A program made the translations under genes and the position numbers. From the sequence record MK903282.1: a stretch of 64,000 bases of DNA, one strand, 5' to 3'. Below, piece by piece: positions 1,290 through 49,102 of this stretch. Within the stretch, counting starts at the first letter, position 1, and each line of letters begins with the position of its first letter. The notes beneath the pieces were generated by a model that saw only the letters and a list, made by a program, of their open reading frames with translations, had not been told where the DNA came from and did no database searches. Origin of the DNA: Escherichia phage Mansfield.

Positions 1290-1327
1290 CTCACTTGTTA
1301 ACGTATAATGAGTATAACTTAATAGAG

Positions 1328-1355
1328 CATAAAGTAAAGGCGCTTTTCAGCGCCT
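1328..1355 (-). terminator. putative intrinsic terminator downstream of the tail fiber gene
   Basis: Hairpin AGGCGC-ttttca-GCGCCT followed on the minus strand by UUACUUU. Confidence 0.35.
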
Positions 1356-3693: not shown

Positions 3694-4035
3694 TTAATTT
3701 CTTTTGAGAGGAATATGACGGTTGCTGTCATTATTTGGTTTAATAATGAGCATAAAAACGATTAGAAAGATGATGGCTGATATACTTAATTCAATCAGCG
3801 CGGCTTGAGATATGGATTGATCTTCATGATACTGCTTTTGCATTTCCGCTCTCTTTTGAGCGCAAACTTCAGGCGATATATAATCTCCTTTTGAGTTGCC
3901 ATAATAAATCTCGCCATTCTCAGAAATAAGCCTGCCGCAAATATCCGTATCGGCCTTTGCGCTTGACATCATAATAACGGTGCCGATGATAGCAGCAATT
4001 GTCCAAATTAGCAGTTGTGATAAAGTGTTGTTCAT
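3694..4035 (-). CDS. small membrane protein (N- and C-terminal hydrophobic segments)
   Basis: 113 aa; N-terminal signal/TM segment and C-terminal TM helix; directly downstream of the tail fiber gene. Confidence 0.45.
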   Translation of the reverse strand: MNNTLSQLLIWTIAAIIGTVIMMSSAKADTDICGRLISENGEIYYGNSKGDYISPEVCAQKRAEMQKQYHEDQSISQAALIELSISAIIFLIVFMLIIKPNNDSNRHIPLKRN

Positions 4036-5330: not shown

Positions 5331-6791
5331 ATGAATAAAATATTAACACATAATTGGAAAGTCATGTACCAGTTGAATCCTGCTTTAAGAGAAGTTTGGA
5401 AGACGAAAGCGCGATACAAAGTAATATACGGCGGTCGTGCATCTTCCAAATCGCATGATGCCGCTGGTTTTGCTATTTATTTGGCGGCAAACTTTAAATT
5501 AAAATTCCTTTGCGTTCGACAATTCCAGAACAAGATTTCTGAATCAGTATATACGCTATTAAAAGATAAGATAGAGATTTCTGATTTTAAAGACGAGTTC
5601 AACTTATTAAAGAACTCTATTGAACACAAAAGAACAAAATCTGAATTCTTATTTTACGGTATCGCACGCAACGTTGACGAAATCAAATCAACAGAAGGCG
5701 TTGATGTTCTTTGGCTTGAAGAAGCGCATGCACTGACTGAAGAACAATGGGACATTATTGAGCCGACCATTCGTAAGGAAGGGTCAGAAATATGGATCAT
5801 ATTTAACCCTGATGAAGAGGCCGATTTCGTCTACCAGAACTTTGTCATGCGACCGCCGAAGAATGCCATCGTTAAGAAGATCAACTGGCAAGACAACCCA
5901 TTTTTGTCACAAACAATGCTGGATGTTATTGCTGGCATGTATGAGCGCGACCCGAAAAAGGCAGAACACGTTTATGGCGGAGTACCGAAGACAGGCGGCG
6001 ACAAGTCGGTCATCAACCGTGCATTCGTCAAGGCCGCGCTAAACCTCCACAAACACCCTACGCTGGGATGGAGCTTGTCAGGGTCTAACCGTATAGGCTT
6101 TGACGTGGCGGACGACGGCGACGACTTAAACGCCACAGCATTTGTCACGGGCAACGTATTGCGCGGCATCAAGACATGGGAAGGTCTGGAAGATGAATTG
6201 CTTAAGTCCGCAAGCGGAGTTTGGAAAGACGCATTGACATTCGGCGCATCAATTACCTATGACGCAATCGGTGTTGGTGCATTTGCTGGTTCAAAATTTG
6301 ATGAGCTTAATGAGTATGCAATCCATGAAAATCCAACATTCCCAAGAATCGAATTTAATGCGTTCAACGCGCAAGGTGCTGTTGATGATCCTGATGATGT
6401 TTTCCTTGAGTTACCACACGTTGAAATACTCAATAAAGACCATTTCGCAAACATAAAAGCGCAAAAATGGACTGAGATTGCCGAACGATTCAGGAAGACA
6501 TATGAATATGCGACAGGGCAAGCCGTATATCCGACCGATGAGTTGATTTCCATCGACACAGACGGCATTCCAGAACTTGGGATTCCTGCTTGGTCTGCGG
6601 AAGAGATTGAGACGTTTCTTTTTGAGATGTCAGCGCCGCGCAAAGATACGTCTGTACTTGGCAAGTTCAAAGTTGAATCGAAAAAAGATATGGCAAAGCG
6701 TGGAGTCAAATCGCCTAACAAAGCGGACGCCGCAATCATGGCATTGATGAAACCAATTGTTGCAGCATCCGGCTTCTTCTCTAACCTTTAA
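5331..6791 (+). CDS. terminase large subunit
   Basis: 486 aa; N-terminal ATPase with Walker A-like YGGRASSKS and LWLEEAH; C-terminal nuclease-like acidic residues; position immediately upstream of portal. True start may be the downstream ATG at 5364. Confidence 0.85.
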   Translation: MNKILTHNWKVMYQLNPALREVWKTKARYKVIYGGRASSKSHDAAGFAIYLAANFKLKFLCVRQFQNKISESVYTLLKDKIEISDFKDEFNLLKNSIEHKRTKSEFLFYGIARNVDEIKSTEGVDVLWLEEAHALTEEQWDIIEPTIRKEGSEIWIIFNPDEEADFVYQNFVMRPPKNAIVKKINWQDNPFLSQTMLDVIAGMYERDPKKAEHVYGGVPKTGGDKSVINRAFVKAALNLHKHPTLGWSLSGSNRIGFDVADDGDDLNATAFVTGNVLRGIKTWEGLEDELLKSASGVWKDALTFGASITYDAIGVGAFAGSKFDELNEYAIHENPTFPRIEFNAFNAQGAVDDPDDVFLELPHVEILNKDHFANIKAQKWTEIAERFRKTYEYATGQAVYPTDELISIDTDGIPELGIPAWSAEEIETFLFEMSAPRKDTSVLGKFKVESKKDMAKRGVKSPNKADAAIMALMKPIVAASGFFSNL

Positions 6792-6794
6792 CAA

Positions 6795-7034
6795 CTAAAG
6801 CATTCCGTGCTGAAGGTCGAGTTTTCTTGCGGCAAATGACCTGGCACGGAATCGCTTACCCGCTCTTACTGCCTGTCGAATTTTCTTTTGCAAACACTTA
6901 CGGTCAAAATCGTTGCGGTCGACGGCTTCGAGTAAATCACGACGCAACGCACCCAGTGTCGACTTTTCGGAGACTTCAACGCCCAGCGCGGCTGCAACGT
7001 CTTTCAAAACATCGAGTTCGGTTAAAGTTCTCAT
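6795..7034 (-). CDS. hypothetical protein
   Basis: 79-aa ORF on the opposite strand between terminase and portal. Confidence 0.4.
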   Translation of the reverse strand: MRTLTELDVLKDVAAALGVEVSEKSTLGALRRDLLEAVDRNDFDRKCLQKKIRQAVRAGKRFRARSFAARKLDLQHGML

Positions 7035-7447
7035 TTGATAATCCCCTTGATGTCTGATTCTGCCATAAAGATTGGAGTGCCGCCGCCAGGAACAATCGAG
7101 CGCGTTACTTTGTCAAAAATATCGTTCTCTTCAACTTGAATACGATAAAATTTATTTTTGGATGAAGATGGGCACAATCCCATAAATTTGCCGATGCCGC
7201 GAACGCATTCATCTTCAAAGTATACTGTTTCACCTTGAATGGATTCGATGTTGTCTACTGGATAGACCTTGCGACCCAACAACCACTCATCTAAAGTCGC
7301 CTGCAAGACGTTTCGCGCATCTAAAATCCACGGGTCAATAGTAGCACCTTCGTATCGCGCAGCAGTAGCCTTTGCCAGTTCTTCATATTCGCATACGTTA
7401 ACGACTTCGCCGTTGTGCAAGACGACAAATACAATTGTTGTGCTCAT
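7031..7447 (-). CDS. hypothetical protein
   Basis: 138-aa ORF with AAAGGAG RBS; opposite strand between terminase and portal. Confidence 0.45.
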   Translation of the reverse strand: MSTTIVFVVLHNGEVVNVCEYEELAKATAARYEGATIDPWILDARNVLQATLDEWLLGRKVYPVDNIESIQGETVYFEDECVRGIGKFMGLCPSSSKNKFYRIQVEENDIFDKVTRSIVPGGGTPIFMAESDIKGIIK

Positions 7448-7542
7448 TTCAATCTCCTTTCGTTTGGTTAACTAAAATATAACTCAAAATGATACAAAAG
7501 CAAAATATTTTATGAACTATTTATGATCACCATACATATCAT

Positions 7543-11914: not shown

Positions 11915-11944
11915 ATCGCCTGGCAATGGATTGCCGCAGGATTT

Positions 11945-12235
11945 TACGCGTATAATGACGTATCATCCGTATCAAGTAAGTATTTGTTTTCAAAAGAATC
12001 TTACGTATGATACGGATGATACGCGTTGCCGCGATACTTTATAGGAATTCAAATAAATTAATTTAAAATTATATATCTAATTTAATTTTATTTTTTTATA
12101 AACTCTTATATATGAAAAGTATCCGTATCATCCGTATCATCCGTAGCACACCAGTGATAGCGCGGCTTATACACCGATACGGATAAAAATACGCCTCATT
12201 TTATCCGTATCATCCGTATCACACTAATTAAGGCG
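11945..12235. repeat. iteron-like repeat region: about 10 copies of 9-mer ATCCGTATC/GATACGGAT in both orientations flanking an AT-rich stretch
   Basis: Read directly: GTATCATCCGTATCA (11960-11974), inverted TGATACGGATGATACGCG (12008-12025), tandem ATCCGTATCATCCGTATCATCCGTAGC (12121-12147), GATACGGAT (about 12176-12184), TTATCCGTATCATCCGTATCACAC (12201-12224); AT-rich block 12040-12120. Confidence 0.6.
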
Positions 12236-12278
12236 CGGCTATATCGGTTGTTATACATATTCAAACCATAATTATTGT

Positions 12279-12307
12279 TTGCCTAAGTTTTTTTCATTAG
12301 ATATAAT
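12279..12307 (+). promoter_or_regulatory. sigma70-like promoter for scaffold/capsid operon
   Basis: TTGCCT-N17-TATAAT upstream of the scaffold gene. Confidence 0.4.
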
Positions 12308-12336
12308 ACACAATACTTATTTGAGGGTGGATGCGA

Positions 12337-31448: not shown

Positions 31449-33236
31449 ATGCCAACACTTATTAACAGACCTTTCGCGCAAAGCGGTGATGTATCCGTGG
31501 TGCCGGATGCAAGCCCAAGCGGTTATGTGAACTTCCAGCGCGGCTACACACCTGACTATGCGCTTGCTCTGGAGGCTGGAAACGTCGCCGCGAAAGCTGT
31601 TGAGCGCGAATCGATGAACTGGTTGCTGAATTTGATTACAGACAACCTTATGTTTATTCAAGACCATGGCGCTCAACAATATTTCTCTTCTGACTTGAAG
31701 CCGGATGGATACCCGAAAAATGCCATTGTTGTCAGCAACTCTGGAACGCCTTCAGCGCCTGAGTGGCGCATCTTTCAAAGCGTGGTCGACGGCAACACAA
31801 GCGCCGTACCAGCTAACGGAGAAACGGAATCTTGGCAGGAATTAACACTGCCCAGCGAAGCGCGAAAATACATTCCGATGCCTGCTGGCGGCGATGCGCA
31901 AAACCCGTACTTTGTTCGCGGATTGATTTCAAGCTTTGTGGACTTCGATAATATCACGACTTCCACAACTATCGTCATTCAATCAGATGCAGTCGCCGCT
32001 CTTTGCTCTAACATCCCGAATGCGGTTGGCGCAACAAAGGTTGCAGGTCGACTGCAGGTCTGCGCTTGGCAGGTCGATGCGCAAACGTTTGCCTTGCAGC
32101 AATATACATCAATGAATGGCTATTTGTTTACTCGCTCTTACACTTCTGGTGCTTGGAGTGCTTGGATTCAAAACGCAACCATTCAAGATGTGCAAATCGG
32201 AACGCCAAACCTTGCATCTGGTAAAGGCGCGCAAGATATAATCCTCACCGTTCCAGCAGGGTATTCATGGCCACCTTCTGCGGGTAGCCGTTTAACCATC
32301 GTCAATGATGTGACTACTACCGGACCTGTCACCGTGACCATTGGTGCGAACAAGGTTGCCGTTCTTGGATTCGACGGCGGCGAGTTACCAGCTGGCGCTA
32401 TCGTAGGTTTGTTGCCATTCACCATCATTTATGACGGCACCGTGTGGCGTCTCCTTCAGGCGTTTGGCGCGGCGCAAATCGGCGTTGACGCTACTGAGCC
32501 GCAGCAGTTTGTGACCAAAAGACAGCTTGATGCGCTTGCTGAAAAGTTGATCACCATGGGTGATGTGTTCGAAGTCGGTGAGACTCGATTCCTGACAAAC
32601 GGGACCAACCCAAACACCAAACTGGGTGCTTACGGTCAGGTATGGACACGACTGCCTGATAACATGGTGATTCGCACGTCCGGCACGGCACGGAACGGGC
32701 TTGCAACTGGCGGCGCGGACTCTGTCACCCTTACCGCCGCCATGCTTCCTCTCCACAATCACAGTGTGAACATTACCACACGACAAAGTGGCCCATGGTC
32801 CAATACCACTGGAGACGCAGGCAATCACAATCACACAGGGGATACAAGCCAAAACGGTGCTCACGTGCACGGAATGGACACTGCAGGCAACCACCACCAT
32901 GACAGCAGCTGGGGTGAAGCGAATACACACGATGCGCGGTATGGTGTGTATGATAATACGCGCAACAACTTCGGAAGTCGCAAAGGCGGCGACTGGGATA
33001 ACTACAAATACAACACTTCAACTAATGGCAACCACGTCCACAATATTCAATCTTCTGGGTCACACACCCATGGGTTGAATATAAATTACGCTGGCAATCA
33101 CAGCCACAGTTATACCCTTCCCGCTCACACTCACGATGTGGTCGGTAACACTGGCAATGCAGGGCAGTCGGTGCCAACGGCTGTTGCGACTTTGCCGCGA
33201 TACGTTGTTTTGAATGGCTGGTACAGAAGCGCATAA
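31449..33236 (+). CDS. tail fiber (receptor-binding) protein with histidine-rich HxH repeat tip
   Basis: ATG 31449 with GAGGA RBS; C-terminal run of HxH motifs (NHNHTG, AHVHG, NHHHD, NHVHN, SHTHG, NHSHS, AHTHD) like metal-binding needle tips of T4-type fibers. Confidence 0.6.
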   Translation: MPTLINRPFAQSGDVSVVPDASPSGYVNFQRGYTPDYALALEAGNVAAKAVERESMNWLLNLITDNLMFIQDHGAQQYFSSDLKPDGYPKNAIVVSNSGTPSAPEWRIFQSVVDGNTSAVPANGETESWQELTLPSEARKYIPMPAGGDAQNPYFVRGLISSFVDFDNITTSTTIVIQSDAVAALCSNIPNAVGATKVAGRLQVCAWQVDAQTFALQQYTSMNGYLFTRSYTSGAWSAWIQNATIQDVQIGTPNLASGKGAQDIILTVPAGYSWPPSAGSRLTIVNDVTTTGPVTVTIGANKVAVLGFDGGELPAGAIVGLLPFTIIYDGTVWRLLQAFGAAQIGVDATEPQQFVTKRQLDALAEKLITMGDVFEVGETRFLTNGTNPNTKLGAYGQVWTRLPDNMVIRTSGTARNGLATGGADSVTLTAAMLPLHNHSVNITTRQSGPWSNTTGDAGNHNHTGDTSQNGAHVHGMDTAGNHHHDSSWGEANTHDARYGVYDNTRNNFGSRKGGDWDNYKYNTSTNGNHVHNIQSSGSHTHGLNINYAGNHSHSYTLPAHTHDVVGNTGNAGQSVPTAVATLPRYVVLNGWYRSA

Positions 33237-33244
33237 GGTGATTT

Positions 33245-33889
33245 ATGATTAACGCAAACGTAATATCTAAAGGGACCGGATGCAGCATGGATGTTGCAGA
33301 GAAATGGGTGGACCCTTTCAAGCAGGCTTGTGAGCACTACGGAATCAAAAGCAAGAGTGCCATCGCGGCATTCCTTGCAAACGTAGGAGTAGAAACGGGC
33401 AGCTTGAAGACCTTTGTGGAAAATCTCAACTACTCTGCACAGGGTCTTGCCAATACATGGCCTAGTCGTTACAGCGTCAACGGTCGTGCTGGAAGCGCCC
33501 CGAACTCATTGGCCCTGTCGATTGCCCGTAAACCTGTGGAAATCGCCAATAATACATATGCAAACCGCATGGGAAACGGTTCGGTAGCGTCTGGTGACGG
33601 TTGGAAGTACCGTGGCCGTGGTGCCATTCAGTTGACTGGCAAAGCAAACTATGCGGAATATACGCGTCAATCAGGCTATGATGCATTGAATAACCCCGAC
33701 ATTTTGACTGAGCCGAAATACATCGCTGACAGCGCGGCATGGTTCTTCAAGAATAGTGGTTGTATTCCTCTTGCTGACGCAGGTAATTTTGATTCAACCG
33801 TTAAGCGGATTAACGGGGCCGCGCCGAACGCAGCAAACCACGGTGAGTTGCGAAGAAAGCGTTACAAGGATGCATTAGCAGTTATGTAA
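33245..33889 (+). CDS. endolysin, glycoside hydrolase family 19 (chitinase-like lysozyme)
   Basis: IAAFLANVGVETGSL and YRGRGAIQLTGKANYAEY match GH19 endolysin signature regions. Confidence 0.8.
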   Translation: MINANVISKGTGCSMDVAEKWVDPFKQACEHYGIKSKSAIAAFLANVGVETGSLKTFVENLNYSAQGLANTWPSRYSVNGRAGSAPNSLALSIARKPVEIANNTYANRMGNGSVASGDGWKYRGRGAIQLTGKANYAEYTRQSGYDALNNPDILTEPKYIADSAAWFFKNSGCIPLADAGNFDSTVKRINGAAPNAANHGELRRKRYKDALAVM

Positions 33890-33895
33890 GAAAAA

Positions 33896-33922
33896 GGCCC
33901 ATATGGGCCTTTGTTTATTTTA
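33896..33922. terminator. bidirectional intrinsic terminator between convergent genes
   Basis: GGCCC-atat-GGGCC flanked by A5 upstream and TTTGTTTATTTT downstream. Confidence 0.55.
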
Positions 33923-34145
33923 CGGCTTCAACTTGGACGGGCGGAGCGGAACTTGTATCAATGTCTGGCAAGTCGAAGTAATACCCCGCCATACCAATCA
34001 CACCTACAATCGCGGCCCGTGCCACCTTGTTGCTAATTGACTCCCCAATAAGCTTTACCAACAGGGATAAGATTTGAGACGTCAAAGCCTTTTTCAGCCT
34101 TTTGTTTTCTTCCAAATCTTTCTGCATAACTACCACCCATGTCAA
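33915..34145 (-). CDS. small membrane protein (single TM), possible holin-like or accessory protein
   Basis: 76 aa; hydrophobic segment AAIVGVIGMAGYYF; ATGA overlap with upstream gene. Confidence 0.4.
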   Translation of the reverse strand: MTWVVVMQKDLEENKRLKKALTSQILSLLVKLIGESISNKVARAAIVGVIGMAGYYFDLPDIDTSSAPPVQVEAVK

Positions 34146-34684
34146 CGCACTTCCTGTGTCTTAACATTACCTGAAGCATCTCTCAAGGGCAGTGGATAGT
34201 AGGCCATTTGGTAGTCTGATACGCCTTCAATGTGATAAAACACGATTACGTCTTTGCTGTTGATGAGCATGTTAACGACATCTGATTTATCTTCTGGAGT
34301 GAGTATTAGTGCGCCGCCTGTCCTGCTGTCTACTGCAACAGGGTATGTCTTGTCGACAAGGCCGCTGTCCAATGTATTATACCTGACAACGATTTCAGGG
34401 GCATCAACTTTTGCCATTGACATTCCGAACACAAACGACACGACCTGCCGACCGCGATCATTCATTACGCACATCTTTTCTTTGTCAAATCTTTCTTTTA
34501 TTACGTCGTATTTATTCCAGCAGAACTCAAAGGATTGACCATTGTTGAAATATCTTGTAAGAACTTTTGCACTTCCATTTGGCGGCGTAAACATATTTTC
34601 AGCCGCTGCAGCCTTGGTGAAGAATATAACTGTCAGCATAGCCATGATGATGATCAAAACAATCTTTAATTTGTTCGCTTTCAT
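34142..34684 (-). CDS. secreted/periplasmic protein with N-terminal signal peptide
   Basis: 180 aa; MKANKLKIVLIIIMAMLTVIFFTKAAAAE signal-peptide-like N-terminus; strong AAAAGGTGA RBS. Confidence 0.5.
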   Translation of the reverse strand: MKANKLKIVLIIIMAMLTVIFFTKAAAAENMFTPPNGSAKVLTRYFNNGQSFEFCWNKYDVIKERFDKEKMCVMNDRGRQVVSFVFGMSMAKVDAPEIVVRYNTLDSGLVDKTYPVAVDSRTGGALILTPEDKSDVVNMLINSKDVIVFYHIEGVSDYQMAYYPLPLRDASGNVKTQEVR

Positions 34685-34757
34685 TATAATTCACCTTTTG
34701 ATTATGAATATTAATAGTATAGGCTTAAGGTTTTGAAAGTAAATACGCCGAAAGTAA

Positions 34758-34785
34758 ATAAAAGAAAAGCCGGAAATTTCCGGCT
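34758..34785 (-). terminator. intrinsic terminator downstream of DNA ligase gene
   Basis: AGCCGG-aaattt-CCGGCT followed on minus strand by UUUCUUUU. Confidence 0.45.
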
Positions 34786-34859
34786 TTATGTATACACTGC
34801 ATATTAAATTCTATAAAACGGCGCGATAGATTATACGCAACAATTATTTATCCAGTGTG

Positions 34860-35837
34860 TTAAAAATACTCCATATCGGTAATATCACGGAAGCACTTAT
34901 ACAAGGCAGAGCGCGGCACGTCAACGATGCCAAAGTTAAAGAATTTATATGTCAGATACTTGTTGCGATAATTCTCGCGATTCTCCCAAAGCATTTTTCT
35001 CTCTGCCATAGGCATTGAACCAGCGGAGACGCGGAAAGGAATCATTTCCCCTTTCTCATCAACATATTTTGGATTGACAACTACGAATGAGCCAAGGTAT
35101 CCTTTTGCGACTAAGCCTTCAGCCTCTTTTGAACGCTTAGTGCGACCCAACTCATCAATGAATGCTTCGTTGTTGTTCTCCATCATCTCAACGAAGTCTA
35201 TGATCAGTCCTTCTTCATCGGTCCACGGCTTATCCTTCCACACATCACGTGACTTTGGCGTCGCGCGGCCATGCTTGTATTTGCCCGTCCAAGACTTGCC
35301 ATACAAGCCTTCATAGCCAAGCTGGTCTGCTTCGATTTGCATTGCCGCGTACTGTTCCATATTTTCGATGTTTCGATATTCGAGAGCGCGAAGGAATGGG
35401 CGTCGACCATGGTTGATGAGGTGCTGATTGACTTCAGCAACTCTAGCGCGATAGTTTGCATAACGTTTTTCAAAAGGCAAATCAGGGTCGCTGAAGTCAT
35501 CAAACACCCACCATGTAAAGTTAGTGATTGCATCAGTGTTCATACATGCAGTATAGGCCTGTTGCATGACGTTCTTGTCGTTCGGATTGCCGTCAATTAG
35601 CTCTCCATCAAGTCCGTGAATCAATTCACCCAAGAACAGGAACTCTTTTTTGATTTGAATGTTGCGCAGCGCCATGCCGGAAGTGCCCATTGGCAAGTTG
35701 TCATACGCCATCGCGCGTATGCCATCGACCTTGAAGGATAATCCGCAAGGCAGCGGCACATCTTCACCGCGCTCGATAATTTGCTTACGCTGGCAACCTT
35801 TCATTGGTTTTAATGCTTTGATTTCCCCTGCCATCAC
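34860..35837 (-). CDS. ATP-dependent DNA ligase
   Basis: 325 aa; nucleotidyltransferase motif I KVDGIR (KxDGxR) and downstream ligase-like motifs. Confidence 0.75.
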   Translation of the reverse strand: MMAGEIKALKPMKGCQRKQIIERGEDVPLPCGLSFKVDGIRAMAYDNLPMGTSGMALRNIQIKKEFLFLGELIHGLDGELIDGNPNDKNVMQQAYTACMNTDAITNFTWWVFDDFSDPDLPFEKRYANYRARVAEVNQHLINHGRRPFLRALEYRNIENMEQYAAMQIEADQLGYEGLYGKSWTGKYKHGRATPKSRDVWKDKPWTDEEGLIIDFVEMMENNNEAFIDELGRTKRSKEAEGLVAKGYLGSFVVVNPKYVDEKGEMIPFRVSAGSMPMAERKMLWENRENYRNKYLTYKFFNFGIVDVPRSALYKCFRDITDMEYF

Positions 35838-36427
35838 TCGCGACCCTCATTCATTACTTGTTCCATTGCGTAGGCATAAGCCTGATCAGTCGATTTGATA
35901 AAAGTTCCGTTATACATCACGCCTTTACGGTCCTTGATGTCTTCATAGGCGGCTTGAGCGCAATCAGACAGTCGAAGTCCATAATCATGCGCTACGCCGG
36001 AAAGATAATCGACTGCGGCCATGATGGTGACATCAATATCCATACTCTGATTTTTAGCAATGGCGTCACCAAGCCGTCCGAGAGTCTTTGCTAAGCGAAG
36101 GATAAACGAGTGAGGGTGGGCACCTTTGTCAGCGCAACCGCCGCCGTTGACATCTTCGATTTTTGCACCATTTTGCGCAGCAAGAATAGTTAACACAACA
36201 AGGCAATCGCCGATGTCATCCTTGATTGCGGCTTGTAAATCACAGATGGCCTGCTCTGTATATCCGATTTCAGGGTCAAAGAACACAAGGTCATGGAGTT
36301 GATCAACGTGGTCGGTCAACTCCCCAAACTCGCTAATAAGCTTCGGGTATTGGTCTTTAAGACCGCAACCTTTGATGATGTTACGGTCAGAAGCCCACTG
36401 GCGAATGTTTGCATAAATCTGGTTCAT
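35834..36427 (-). CDS. mazG: MazG-like nucleoside triphosphate pyrophosphohydrolase
   Basis: 197 aa; all-alpha NTP-PPase motifs EFGELTDH and DIGDCLVVL, second degenerate repeat. Confidence 0.55.
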   Translation of the reverse strand: MNQIYANIRQWASDRNIIKGCGLKDQYPKLISEFGELTDHVDQLHDLVFFDPEIGYTEQAICDLQAAIKDDIGDCLVVLTILAAQNGAKIEDVNGGGCADKGAHPHSFILRLAKTLGRLGDAIAKNQSMDIDVTIMAAVDYLSGVAHDYGLRLSDCAQAAYEDIKDRKGVMYNGTFIKSTDQAYAYAMEQVMNEGRE

Positions 36428-36942
36428 TTATTTTCCTTTGATGCGTTGAATTGATCGATTTTAATTTTAGCCTGATTATAAGTATCAATCAAGCTATTAA
36501 CCTTCTCTTTTAATCTGTTTGTTTCTGCGGCGAACTGAACAAGAAATCGGACATCCTCTTCTGATAGTCCACAGTTTCCTTCTGGGATAGAGAGGCGTCC
36601 AGTGGTCGCAGAGTCGGGCACACTCCTGAGTAATTCACGGGAGCAGCTGAGTTGCTCGCGCAACTTGATATTCCCAGACTTGTAACGAGCAATAGTGTCA
36701 TCAGCAACCAGTTGCGCTTCCTGGCGACCCTTCTCATATGCCGATGCCGATTCAACCTGTAAAGATGCAATTTGCTCTTCGAGTGCATTTATCTTGTCCT
36801 TACGCTCATTAAGCGATGTCAGATATTGATTATCCTTGGCCAGTGATGCGTTGGTTTGCTGAAGGTCTTCAACGTATGATCCAGCGGCGAACGCGCCAAC
36901 AAGGGCCAGAATCTTCAGAAGCGGTACAATTCTTTCTATCAT
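36424..36942 (-). CDS. i-spanin (Rz-like) lysis protein
   Basis: 172 aa; N-terminal TM helix LLKILALVGAFAAGSYV followed by long charged coiled coil; contains an embedded lipoprotein ORF in another frame. Confidence 0.5.
   Translation of the reverse strand: MIERIVPLLKILALVGAFAAGSYVEDLQQTNASLAKDNQYLTSLNERKDKINALEEQIASLQVESASAYEKGRQEAQLVADDTIARYKSGNIKLREQLSCSRELLRSVPDSATTGRLSIPEGNCGLSEEDVRFLVQFAAETNRLKEKVNSLIDTYNQAKIKIDQFNASKENK
36510..36737 (-). CDS. o-spanin (Rz1-like outer-membrane lipoprotein), embedded within i-spanin gene
   Basis: Embedded frame MRRVARKRNWLLMTLLLVTSLGISSC with lipobox-like ISSC, Pro-containing mature region; start chosen at internal Met of track ORF 36510..36788. Confidence 0.4.
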   Translation of the reverse strand: MRRVARKRNWLLMTLLLVTSLGISSCASNSAAPVNYSGVCPTLRPLDASLSQKETVDYQKRMSDFLFSSPQKQTD

Positions 36943-36954
36943 GATGCACCAGAT

Positions 36955-36984
36955 AAATAAAAGGCCGCCAATCGGCAGCCTTGT
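36955..36984 (-). terminator. putative terminator between SSB-like gene and spanin genes
   Basis: Imperfect hairpin GGCCGCC-aatc-GGCAGCC followed on minus strand by UUUUAUUUAU. Confidence 0.35.
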
Positions 36985-44191: not shown

Positions 44192-44218
44192 ACAAAAAGG
44201 CCGCCCATTAGGACGGCC
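44192..44218 (-). terminator. intrinsic terminator between metabolic island and replication genes
   Basis: GGCCGCC-N-GGACGGCC hairpin followed on minus strand by UUUUU, then AGGAGG RBS. Confidence 0.45.
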
Positions 44219-44806: not shown

Positions 44807-45022
44807 TTATTGATTAATTACTGTGTTGTCTTCGTCCTGTTGCTTTTCAGGAGCGGGTGTGACAATTTCAAATTTAGGTTTGGGTAATTCACCTTTAGCG
44901 CCTGGGACTTCAACGACAATCTTTTTGTCAGACTCAACAGGATTTGGAACTTCAAATTTGGTTGTGTATCCTAATACAACAAGAAGCACTAAACCGATTA
45001 CCGCTACCCAGGCTTTGTTCAT
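44807..45022 (-). CDS. small membrane-anchored protein
   Basis: 71 aa; N-terminal hydrophobic anchor WVAVIGLVLLVVLGY, Pro/Lys/Glu-rich tail. Confidence 0.4.
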   Translation of the reverse strand: MNKAWVAVIGLVLLVVLGYTTKFEVPNPVESDKKIVVEVPGAKGELPKPKFEIVTPAPEKQQDEDNTVINQ

Positions 45023-48969: not shown

Positions 48970-49102
48970 TTGTCCTTTGTGGGTGATATGAGAAGTATAA
49001 TAGCTAAATTATTTTACAGCAACAAGTCATTTTATTTAGTACAGATGAAAAAAAGACCCACAACAAGTGTGGGTCAATTACCGCTGCATAACCGTCCTAA
49101 GG

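Follow-up and report, generated by a model that had tools for sequence, protein, structure and literature searches.

A two-gene cassette lies between the ligase and endolysin genes

We analysed a 64,000-nt stretch of Escherichia phage Mansfield (MK903282.1), here called the window, and followed up a cassette of two small minus-strand genes that we put forward as a candidate lysis module. The window belongs to the genus Wifcevirus and is ~97% identical to phage WFH. Gene 1 (34142-34684) encodes a 180-amino-acid (aa) precursor with a signal peptide, and gene 2 (33915-34127) a 70-aa protein of family PHROG 5165. Both open reading frames (ORFs) are labelled 'hypothetical protein' in every annotated Wifcevirus record. 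Their surroundings (33200-35900) are 92–97% identical to ~28 sequenced Escherichia and Shigella Wifcevirus myoviruses (WFH, ECML-117, FEC19, Bas98-101).

The cassette is bounded by a terminator on each side. Directly upstream, an intrinsic terminator at 34766-34787 (minus strand) closes the spanin-MazG-ligase unit with a 9-bp stem of five G-C pairs followed by UUUUCUUUUAUUU; its folding energy is -13.6 kcal/mol (z -5.7) and it ends in a U-tract. The hairpin and a CTTTTCTTTT tail are kept in the related lineages L007, L008, L012 and L013 and in Pantoea phages Kyle and PA1, and the WFH annotation also places a terminator here. Downstream, a bidirectional terminator at 33893-33912 serves both the cassette and the convergent endolysin gene, with folding energies of -13.2 kcal/mol (minus strand) and -15.3 kcal/mol (plus strand) and U-tracts on both. 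A counterpart, a GC hairpin with U-tracts on both strands, was present in all nine lineages inspected; it is annotated in WFH and Serratia phage MTx, and in Pbunavirus 14-1 on both strands.

A sigma70-like promoter follows immediately on the ligase terminator. The block (34716-34765, minus strand) contains a duplicated TATTTACTT (34752-34760 and 34737-34745), a -35 element TTTACT (34738-34743) and a -10 element TATACT (34716-34721), giving a TTTACT-16-TATACT site at 34743-34716 from which transcription would start near 34709. The pattern TTTAC-N16-18-TATAMT occurs twice in the 64 kb against 0.11 expected occurrences. The block is kept in Bas101, L007, L008, L012 and L013, and the -10 element reads TATAAT in Kyle and PA1; its full order (hairpin, CTTTTCTTTTATTTAC, TATTTACTT, N14, TATACT or TATAAT) persists in lineages with only 35-63% protein identity. 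A second copy of this design stands at 1311-1350 (minus strand), where a terminator T-tract runs into TTTACTTT as the -35 element, followed by 14 nt and TATACT as the -10 element (hairpin-TTTACTTT-N14-TATACT). Promoter type failed to assign the cassette a temporal class: sigma70-like promoters serve early, replication and structural units of the window alike, and in 14-1 such promoters also precede tail genes.

The gene pair is the final unit of a long leftward replication block and not an isolated island. It converges with the morphogenesis and endolysin genes, and shares its orientation with the ligase, MazG and spanin genes and the whole replication block. The plus strand of the neighbourhood carries two tail-fibre genes and the GH19-type endolysin gene; the minus strand, read toward the endolysin, carries a Pam3_gp34-like gene, an Rz-like i-spanin gene with an embedded lipobox ORF, MazG, the ATP-dependent ligase, gene 1 and gene 2. 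The leftward block is itself split into several terminator-bounded units, with other strong minus-strand terminators at 36961-36982, 44199-44218 and 49055-49075. The earlier note on this DNA had described an autonomous, envelope-targeted cassette, having a promoter of its own and terminators at both ends, transcribed against the morphogenesis module. The promoter and terminators hold, with the terminators shifted by a few bases, and so does the autonomy: the terminator-promoter-two genes-terminator layout is kept across genera, and transcript start and end have been mapped for the 14-1 ortholog. The convergence also stands, but the strand shared with the replication block removes the picture of a lone island.

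The substitution pattern indicates that both are real genes under purifying selection, strong on gene 2. Relative to Bas101 (~93% DNA identity), gene 1 has 26 synonymous and 11 non-synonymous codon differences, and gene 2 has 7 synonymous and 0 non-synonymous. Their composition is ordinary, with GC contents of 42.2% for gene 1 and 45.5% for gene 2 against a window gene mean of 46.1% (standard deviation 3.8).

Gene 2 encodes a small protein with a short hydrophobic stretch

Gene 2 most probably starts at ATG 34127, which makes it 70 aa long and leaves genes 1 and 2 without overlap. The 14-nt spacer between them (34128-34141, minus strand) contains a Shine-Dalgarno-like GGGTGGT (34132-34138) 5 nt upstream of this ATG, and it is invariant in six Wifceviruses. 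In seven related lineages the ATG lies 12-21 nt past the upstream stop, each time behind a GGTGG or GGCGG Shine-Dalgarno-like motif; L007 is an exception, with its ATG overlapping the stop. The annotators of WFH and Bas101 chose the same start. The earlier note had a 76-aa second protein overlapping the first; the small gene directly downstream on the same strand, ending at 33915, is there, but the overlap and the extra length require a TTG at 34143-34145 that overlaps the gene 1 stop codon. A TTG start, an overlap or a dual start was considered in view of a similar MMVTVM extension in L007 and set aside, as most lineages lack such an extension.

The architecture of gene 2 is shared by 11 orthologs. 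The window protein has a charged N-terminus, a helix (KKALTSQILSLLVKLIG), a GES-x-x-K-x-x-R loop, a hydrophobic stretch (AAIVGVIGMAGYYF) and an acidic tail. It matches PHROG 5165, annotated 'unknown function', at E 2.3e-8, as do KPP12 ORF46 (4.7e-55) and MTx gp058 (2.9e-12). Across the orthologs a charged, usually strongly basic N-terminus precedes a 17-residue helix, a loop with the consensus G-E-[ST]-[VI]-K-D-[KR]-x-x-R, and an uncharged, Gly-rich stretch of typically 14 residues ending in G-Y-Y-[FY]. An acidic, Pro-containing tail of variable length follows, with net charge -3 in the window (-2 to -8 in most orthologs), so that the basic region is N-terminal.

Whether the stretch crosses the membrane is uncertain. 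It has 14 uncharged residues in the window protein, with a best 17-residue Kyte-Doolittle mean of 1.48 (1.2 to 2.15 among orthologs), and this is too short for a textbook transmembrane helix. The 'single-TM' description given to the protein before thus keeps its hydrophobic stretch, and a bona fide transmembrane span is at best marginal. By the positive-inside rule, the N-terminal two thirds of the protein would be cytoplasmic. The tail would be periplasmic if the stretch spans the membrane, and a monotopic hairpin is equally possible.

Gene 1 encodes a predicted exported beta-sandwich

Gene 1 carries a classical export signal. A Shine-Dalgarno sequence read as AAGGTGA (34691-34697, minus strand) precedes it, and AAAAGGTGA is kept in L007, L013 and Kyle. 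The predicted signal peptide covers residues 1-28 (34601-34684) and consists of MKANKLK, a 15-residue hydrophobic core (IVLIIIMAMLTVIFF) and TKAAAA, with cleavage predicted between AAA and E; no Cys stands at +1 and there is no lipobox. All homologs retain an AXA-type (small-X-small) cleavage motif despite a diverging hydrophobic core. The earlier note had already named a signal peptide; by these features the protein looks like a Sec substrate of signal peptidase I, with a predicted mature periplasmic protein of ~152 aa. C55 and C72 are nearly invariant, consistent with a periplasmic disulfide.

The gene 1 family has very few members. Only ~10 full-length ones, all on phage-sized contigs, emerged from 5.8 billion proteins searched with a word index and 1.84 billion representatives searched exhaustively with HMMER; the exhaustive search returned only the family itself and one spurious repeat-protein match. 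Pfam and NCBIfam gave no match for either product, neither family retrieved a PDB sequence in profile searches, and gene 1 had no profile match to the IalB family PF06776.

Structure prediction, one of the checks proposed for the cassette, gave a confident model of gene 1. With a 5-sequence alignment, AlphaFold2 reached a predicted local distance difference test score (pLDDT) of only 42; enlarging the alignment to 11 sequences by profile search raised it to 85, with a predicted template modelling score of 0.74. The modelled chain opens with an N-terminal helix, ahead of ten strands and one helix, and suggests a beta-sandwich of an orphan family with a weak likeness to the IalB and MotY-N folds. 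The best match in a viral structure library was Serratia phage MTx A0A482MG18 (169 aa, E 1e-7, TM-score 0.56-0.59), which we take to be MTx gp059. MTx gp059 occupies the equivalent locus and is a true remote homolog (hhalign probability 93.6%, E 2e-7). Foldseek against PDB gave only meaningless TEAD matches (TM-score ~0.2). IalB-family proteins are envelope-associated with no known function, so the fold says only that gene 1 may be a periplasmic beta-sandwich of binding or scaffold type. An outer-membrane beta-barrel of the Lom/Ail kind was ruled out, since its C-terminus carries no aromatic signal and the modelled sandwich is soluble.

Gene 2 always faces the endolysin gene, and is missing where canonical holins appear

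Gene 2 keeps one genomic slot across a wide group of phages. tblastn found it in Wifcevirus, in Pantoea phages Kyle and PA1 and in ~290 Pbunavirus records, and profile searches added Myosmarvirus (MTx gp058) and the metagenomic lineages L027 and L036. In ten lineages (Wifcevirus, L007, L008, L012, L013, Kylevirus, Myosmarvirus, Pbunavirus, L027 and L036), out of 11 related ones, it is the last gene facing a convergent endolysin gene across a shared GC-rich bidirectional terminator. Its divergence tracks that of the neighbouring ligase, and the 1.84 billion representative proteins contained no close homologs in unrelated phages or bacteria with other neighbours. Most of the IMG/VR loci retrieved with a ligase profile came from unrelated phage types and were uninformative.

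The endolysin opposite gene 2 has been exchanged repeatedly. Four unrelated types stand there: GH19 (PHROG 181), PHROG 90, GH108 with PG_binding_3 (PHROG 315), and M15 peptidase (PHROG 894). Gene 1 is more restricted. It precedes gene 2 in the E. coli, Pantoea and Serratia isolates and in four metagenomic lineages of unknown host, and it is absent from Pbunavirus and L027, where the interval between ligase and gene 2 is a promoter-bearing gap or nothing.

The single related lineage without genes 1 and 2 comprises Salmonella phage PCSE1 and the IMG/VR contig L023. A hidden Markov model search of the complete PCSE1 genome gave best E values of 4.9 for gene 2 and 0.94 for gene 1. This is also the only lineage with two canonical holin genes (PHROG 2359 and 2508), directly after an orthologous GH19 endolysin gene. 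The window has no homolog of either holin. In PCSE1 (L015:2050-2696) and L023 (7410-8055) the interval between ligase and endolysin encodes an acidic 168-170-aa protein (PHROG 4823) and a 147-164-aa signal-peptide protein.

A distant relative, L036 (IMGVR_UViG_3300044683_000172), has an expanded cassette at 5979-7522 facing its M15-peptidase endolysin. It encodes a 144-aa multi-TM protein (PHROG 18330), a 231-aa signal-peptide protein, a 55-aa lipoprotein with an LTGC lipobox, and the PHROG 5165 protein. A distant relationship of the 231-aa protein to gene 1 is only suggestive (hhalign E 0.04).

Orthologs of gene 2 have a mapped transcript and a lysis-related activity

Two published proteins are orthologs of gene 2. 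The first is PA1-LRP (ORF13) of Pantoea phage PA1, reported by Tian et al. 2024 as a 'novel lysis-related protein' (PMC11538084). It shares 54% identity with gene 2 over a 50-aa core (E 2e-13), and the published primers fix its gene by an exact match to L011:3550-3771. Annotation of PA1 yielded no holin. Expressed alone in E. coli, PA1-LRP lowered optical density at 600 nm (OD600) by 13-20%, increased beta-galactosidase leakage and left 24.65% dead cells; fused to or co-expressed with the endolysin, it gave an OD600 69% lower than the endolysin alone. The hydrophobic region was sufficient by itself, a three-TMD (transmembrane domain) protein, PA1-LVP, was no help, and co-expression with the endolysin produced filamentous cells. 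PA1-LRP was tested mostly as an endolysin fusion, and no phage mutant was made (PMC11538084).

The second is gp48 of Pbunavirus 14-1, which sits in the same slot between ligase and endolysin. Putzeys et al. 2024 mapped the 14-1 transcriptome by ONT-cappable-seq and resolved gp48 as transcription unit TU021, with a start site at 36158 under a sigma70-type promoter, P020 (...TTTTCGACGGGTATAATAGCG...), and a termination site at 35820 (PMC10914365). P020 lies at the position equivalent to the window promoter. A second promoter, P021, of the phage-specific CTGGG type, starts at 36804 inside the ligase gene. Other sigma70-type promoters of the P020 class, P020 itself not among them, drove a reporter in E. 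coli and P. aeruginosa. TU021 was flagged as moron-like for its 51% GC against 56% in the genome, with no function proposed (PMC10914365).

The cassette may be a holin-like module of a dispersed lysis system

The endolysin of the window is the presumed functional partner of the cassette. Its gene (33245-33889, plus strand) encodes a GH19-type enzyme (Pfam Glyco_hydro_19 1.2e-7; PHROG 181 endolysin 6.6e-70) whose N-terminus has no hydrophobic segment and neither a signal nor a signal-anchor-release (SAR) sequence, and it requires a way through the inner membrane. Genes for the outer-membrane step of lysis lie outside the cassette, in the adjoining transcription unit: an Rz-like i-spanin gene at 36424-36942 (minus strand; PHROG 1327, 8.6e-27) contains an Rz1-like o-spanin ORF (36510-36788, lipobox LGISSC). 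This locus also matches PHROG 4306 and PHROG 1275 weakly, and the Bas101 annotation calls it spanins. The cassette as an Rz/Rz1 pair was thereby ruled out, as neither of its products has a lipobox, gene 1 is a beta-sandwich and the real pair lies at 36424-36942.

The hole-forming step has no settled gene in this group. To our knowledge, no holin has been established for the supergroup of Pbunavirus, Wifcevirus, Kylevirus and Myosmarvirus, and published 'holin' labels name different genes. No holin is annotated in Bas101 or WFH, and for MTx the genome announcement, whose authors work at a phage-lysis research centre, says of holin and spanin that they 'were not identified'. In PB1-like phages, an older label of 'probable holin' belongs to a 201-aa protein, now PHROG 1544, and other papers label yet other genes.

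We tentatively read the cassette, a conserved and separately transcribed two-gene operon, as a lysis-accessory, holin-like module of a dispersed lysis system; we regard this as possible, short of probable. Transcription would run from the sigma70-type promoter just past the ligase terminator to the bidirectional terminator shared with the endolysin gene. The basic N-terminal part of the gene 2 protein would stay in the cytoplasm, and its Gly-rich hydrophobic hairpin or short helix would enter the inner membrane. As the protein accumulates it would destabilise or permeabilise the membrane and let the signal-less endolysin reach the murein, a non-canonical holin-like role. The Sec-exported gene 1 protein could act on the same step from the periplasm, by modulating its timing or by binding an envelope component.

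Several lines of evidence support this reading. The link to the endolysin holds in ten lineages and persists through four endolysin types. Gene 2 and canonical holins have complementary distributions, as PCSE1 and L023 show. The PA1-LRP experiments, the separate transcript of 14-1 gp48 and the purifying selection on gene 2 point the same way, and gene 2 has the linkage typical of holin genes, adjacent to and convergent with the endolysin. Among the functions floated in the earlier note, lysis control opposite the endolysin is the best supported, through this comparative pattern and PA1-LRP; superinfection exclusion and receptor masking gained no specific support.

A number of observations weigh against a lysis role. 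Within the protein, the 14 uncharged hydrophobic residues fall below the usual transmembrane thresholds, the tail is acidic where holins usually have a basic C-terminal domain, and no holin family in Pfam, PHROGs or NCBIfam matches. The PA1 work is equivocal: TMHMM found a hydrophobic region in PA1-LRP and no TMD, the toxicity was mild and slow (24-h induction with isopropyl beta-D-thiogalactopyranoside), a two-hybrid test showed no interaction (PMC11538084), and the endolysin fusion could merely tether the enzyme to the membrane. The complementary distribution amounts to a single evolutionary event, position is the sole tie of gene 1 to lysis, and early and structural promoters of Wifcevirus both look sigma70-like, which gives no clue to when the cassette is expressed.

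Better-looking holin candidates also lie elsewhere. A 113-aa protein encoded at 3694-4035 (minus strand) has an N-terminal signal or transmembrane segment (…SSAKA, then D), a ~50-aa loop with two Cys, a strong C-terminal TMD and a basic tail; with two strong TMDs it resembles a classical class II holin. It occurs in Wifcevirus only and has no PHROG or Pfam match. Pbunavirus has candidates of its own, a 145-aa three-TMD protein and the 201-aa PHROG 1544 protein. It is the lack of two classical holin features, a clear TMD and a basic C-terminus, the weak PA1 experiments, the one-event distribution and these rival candidates that keep the lysis-accessory module short of probable.

The PHROG 1544 protein has no homolog in the window. 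In Pbunavirus, Kyle, MTx, PCSE1, L013 and L027 (L003:1562-2167, L004:1020-1625, L014:5764-6369, L015:5467-6075, L013:2606-3211) its gene stands between MazG and the Pam3_gp34-like gene, a slot that the Rz/Rz1 pair of PHROG 1327 fills in Wifcevirus, L007, L008 and L012. The protein has a Gly-zipper N-terminus and a weak GTA_holin_3TM match (E 0.018). It never co-occurs with the PHROG 1327 pair and so may be the spanin-equivalent, or the holin, of Pbunavirus-like phages.

Alternative functions of the gene pair

An envelope function outside lysis, such as interference with cell division or cell-wall growth or a periplasmic scaffold, is unlikely but fits several observations. Adjacency to the endolysin would then reflect operon-end geometry only. 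The weak fold likeness of gene 1 is to IalB and to a flagellar-motor component (8z5n chain A), both envelope-associated with no known enzymatic role, and the IalB-domain protein RgsG localises to the growth pole in Sinorhizobium. The filamentous cells seen on co-expression of PA1-LRP and endolysin, and the purely positional tie of gene 1 to lysis, agree with such a function. It leaves unexplained, however, why gene 2 is lost upon holin gain.

The pair might also modulate another, true holin as an antiholin-type regulator of lysis timing, in the manner of T4 RI and RIII acting on T, with the 113-aa protein at 3694-4035 as one possible target. This is rather improbable. It shares with the holin-like reading the endolysin linkage and the loss alongside canonical holins, and it accommodates the marginal TMD and mild toxicity better than a holin does. 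The stronger holin candidates elsewhere in the genome and a Sec-exported periplasmic partner recalling T4 RI would suit it too. Yet neither product resembles RI, RIII or known antiholins in sequence or fold, the 113-aa candidate is Wifcevirus-specific whereas gene 2 spans many genera, and PA1-LRP alone raised membrane leakage.

Superinfection exclusion or envelope remodelling is improbable to a similar degree. Here the pair would block DNA entry or the tail lysozyme of later phages, or mask a receptor, in parallel with T4 Imm and Sp. Both products are predicted to be envelope-targeted, their sigma70-type promoter is usable by host RNA polymerase without phage factors, and the presence of gene 1 mainly in phages of enterobacterial hosts would suit a protein contacting a host-specific envelope component. 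But there is no homology to known exclusion proteins, a point on which PADLOC-type searches were uninformative, and exclusion predicts neither retention beside four endolysin types nor loss upon holin gain. Gene 2 is moreover core-like, with zero non-synonymous changes across Wifcevirus subgroups, and exclusion genes usually turn over. For Wifceviruses, lysis within minutes has been reported, and latent periods as short as this leave hardly any time for superinfection.

That the cassette is a moron, a horizontally acquired accessory unit dispensable for the lytic cycle, as the earlier note held typical of such architecture and Putzeys et al. 2024 (PMC10914365) suggested for 14-1 gp48, is very improbable: the autonomous promoter and terminators, the moron-like flag on TU021 and the absence of gene 1 from Pbunavirus and L027 speak for it, but only gene 1 is lineage-restricted, gene 2 being a core gene, syntenic in ten lineages (Wifcevirus, Kylevirus, Myosmarvirus, Pbunavirus and several metagenomic ones among them) with divergence that follows the ligase, and sporadic insertion and atypical composition are not seen, GC lies within the normal window range for both genes, terminator-promoter junctions of this design also delimit ordinary units of the genome, and the logic of lysogen benefit does not apply to strictly virulent phages.

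Other features of the window

Two intervals away from the cassette deserve mention. A 71-aa ORF at 44807-45022 (minus strand), with an N-terminal transmembrane segment and a Pro/Glu/Lys-rich tail, sits within the 240 bp that separate a 183-aa gene from a FabG-like gene; the matching gap in Bas101 is only 97 bp, so the ORF has the look of a small membrane gene specific to this strain. A ~420-bp non-coding gap (11915-12335) with an AT-rich middle, upstream of the head-protease gene, is packed with direct and inverted copies of ATCCGTATC and GATACGGAT. These repeats could be protein-binding sites, for example an origin, a packaging site or a regulatory array.

Significance and comparison with known systems

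The sequences themselves were already known as hypothetical proteins; what this analysis adds is a connection among three scattered observations, together with a comparative signature. The transcript of 14-1 gp48, the lysis-related protein PA1-LRP and the hypothetical Wifcevirus gene pair are joined in one family, and its signature, a constant place opposite the endolysin and absence where canonical holins occur, yields a concrete hypothesis that is cheap to test. We regard the pair as the best current candidate for the missing hole-maker of the group. A broader proposal is doubtful: PHROG 5165 could be a new class of lysis protein, the missing holin-equivalent that permeabilises the inner membrane in the Pbunavirus/Wifcevirus/Kylevirus/Myosmarvirus supergroup, lacking a canonical TMD and partnered in relatives with enterobacterial hosts by an IalB-like periplasmic timing or coupling protein. 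Pbunaviruses are among the most-used Pseudomonas therapy phages. A true holin-like role would extend the known lysis proteins by a non-canonical type and offer a means to adjust lysis timing in engineered therapeutic phages; should the role be refuted, a conserved envelope module with a new periplasmic fold would be left.

The closest comparisons are the two orthologs. PA1-LRP is like gene 2 in architecture and slot, with a signal-peptide beta protein (183 aa) encoded upstream and a GH19 endolysin opposite. It differs in that PA1-LRP is known from experiments and gene 2 of the window from sequence. 14-1 gp48 likewise lies between ligase and endolysin with its own promoter and terminator, but its unit is monocistronic, with a 74-nt leader, no 180-aa gene and an extra phage-specific promoter in the ligase gene.

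Gene 1 has looser parallels. IalB (PDB 3dtd, PF06776) and a component of the Vibrio sodium-driven polar flagellar motor (PDB 8z5n chain A) share only 3-8% identity with it, with no Pfam match and no Foldseek support. T4 RI and T resemble the cassette in that a periplasmic protein is encoded along with a membrane lysis protein and could regulate it from the periplasm; an interaction between the products of genes 1 and 2 is purely hypothetical. RI has no sequence or fold similarity to gene 1, and it carries a SAR anchor where gene 1 has a classical cleavable signal peptide. T4 Imm and Sp are likewise a small inner-membrane protein and a Sec-exported periplasmic protein of a virulent myovirus, but they show no homology to the pair, and the T4 genes are neither adjacent nor endolysin-linked.

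Canonical holins such as lambda S105, the phage 21 pinholin S68, T4 T and T7 gp17.5 are small, endolysin-linked, membrane-damaging proteins with a Gly-rich hydrophobic segment and charged termini. Gene 2 shares the small size, the endolysin linkage, the Gly-rich hydrophobic segment and the charged termini, and membrane damage on expression is reported for its ortholog PA1-LRP. It differs in lacking a bona fide TMD of at least 18 residues, in its acidic tail, in its position on the opposite strand under its own promoter, and in matching no holin family. Among known systems, gene 2 would work most like a holin, one outside every described holin family.

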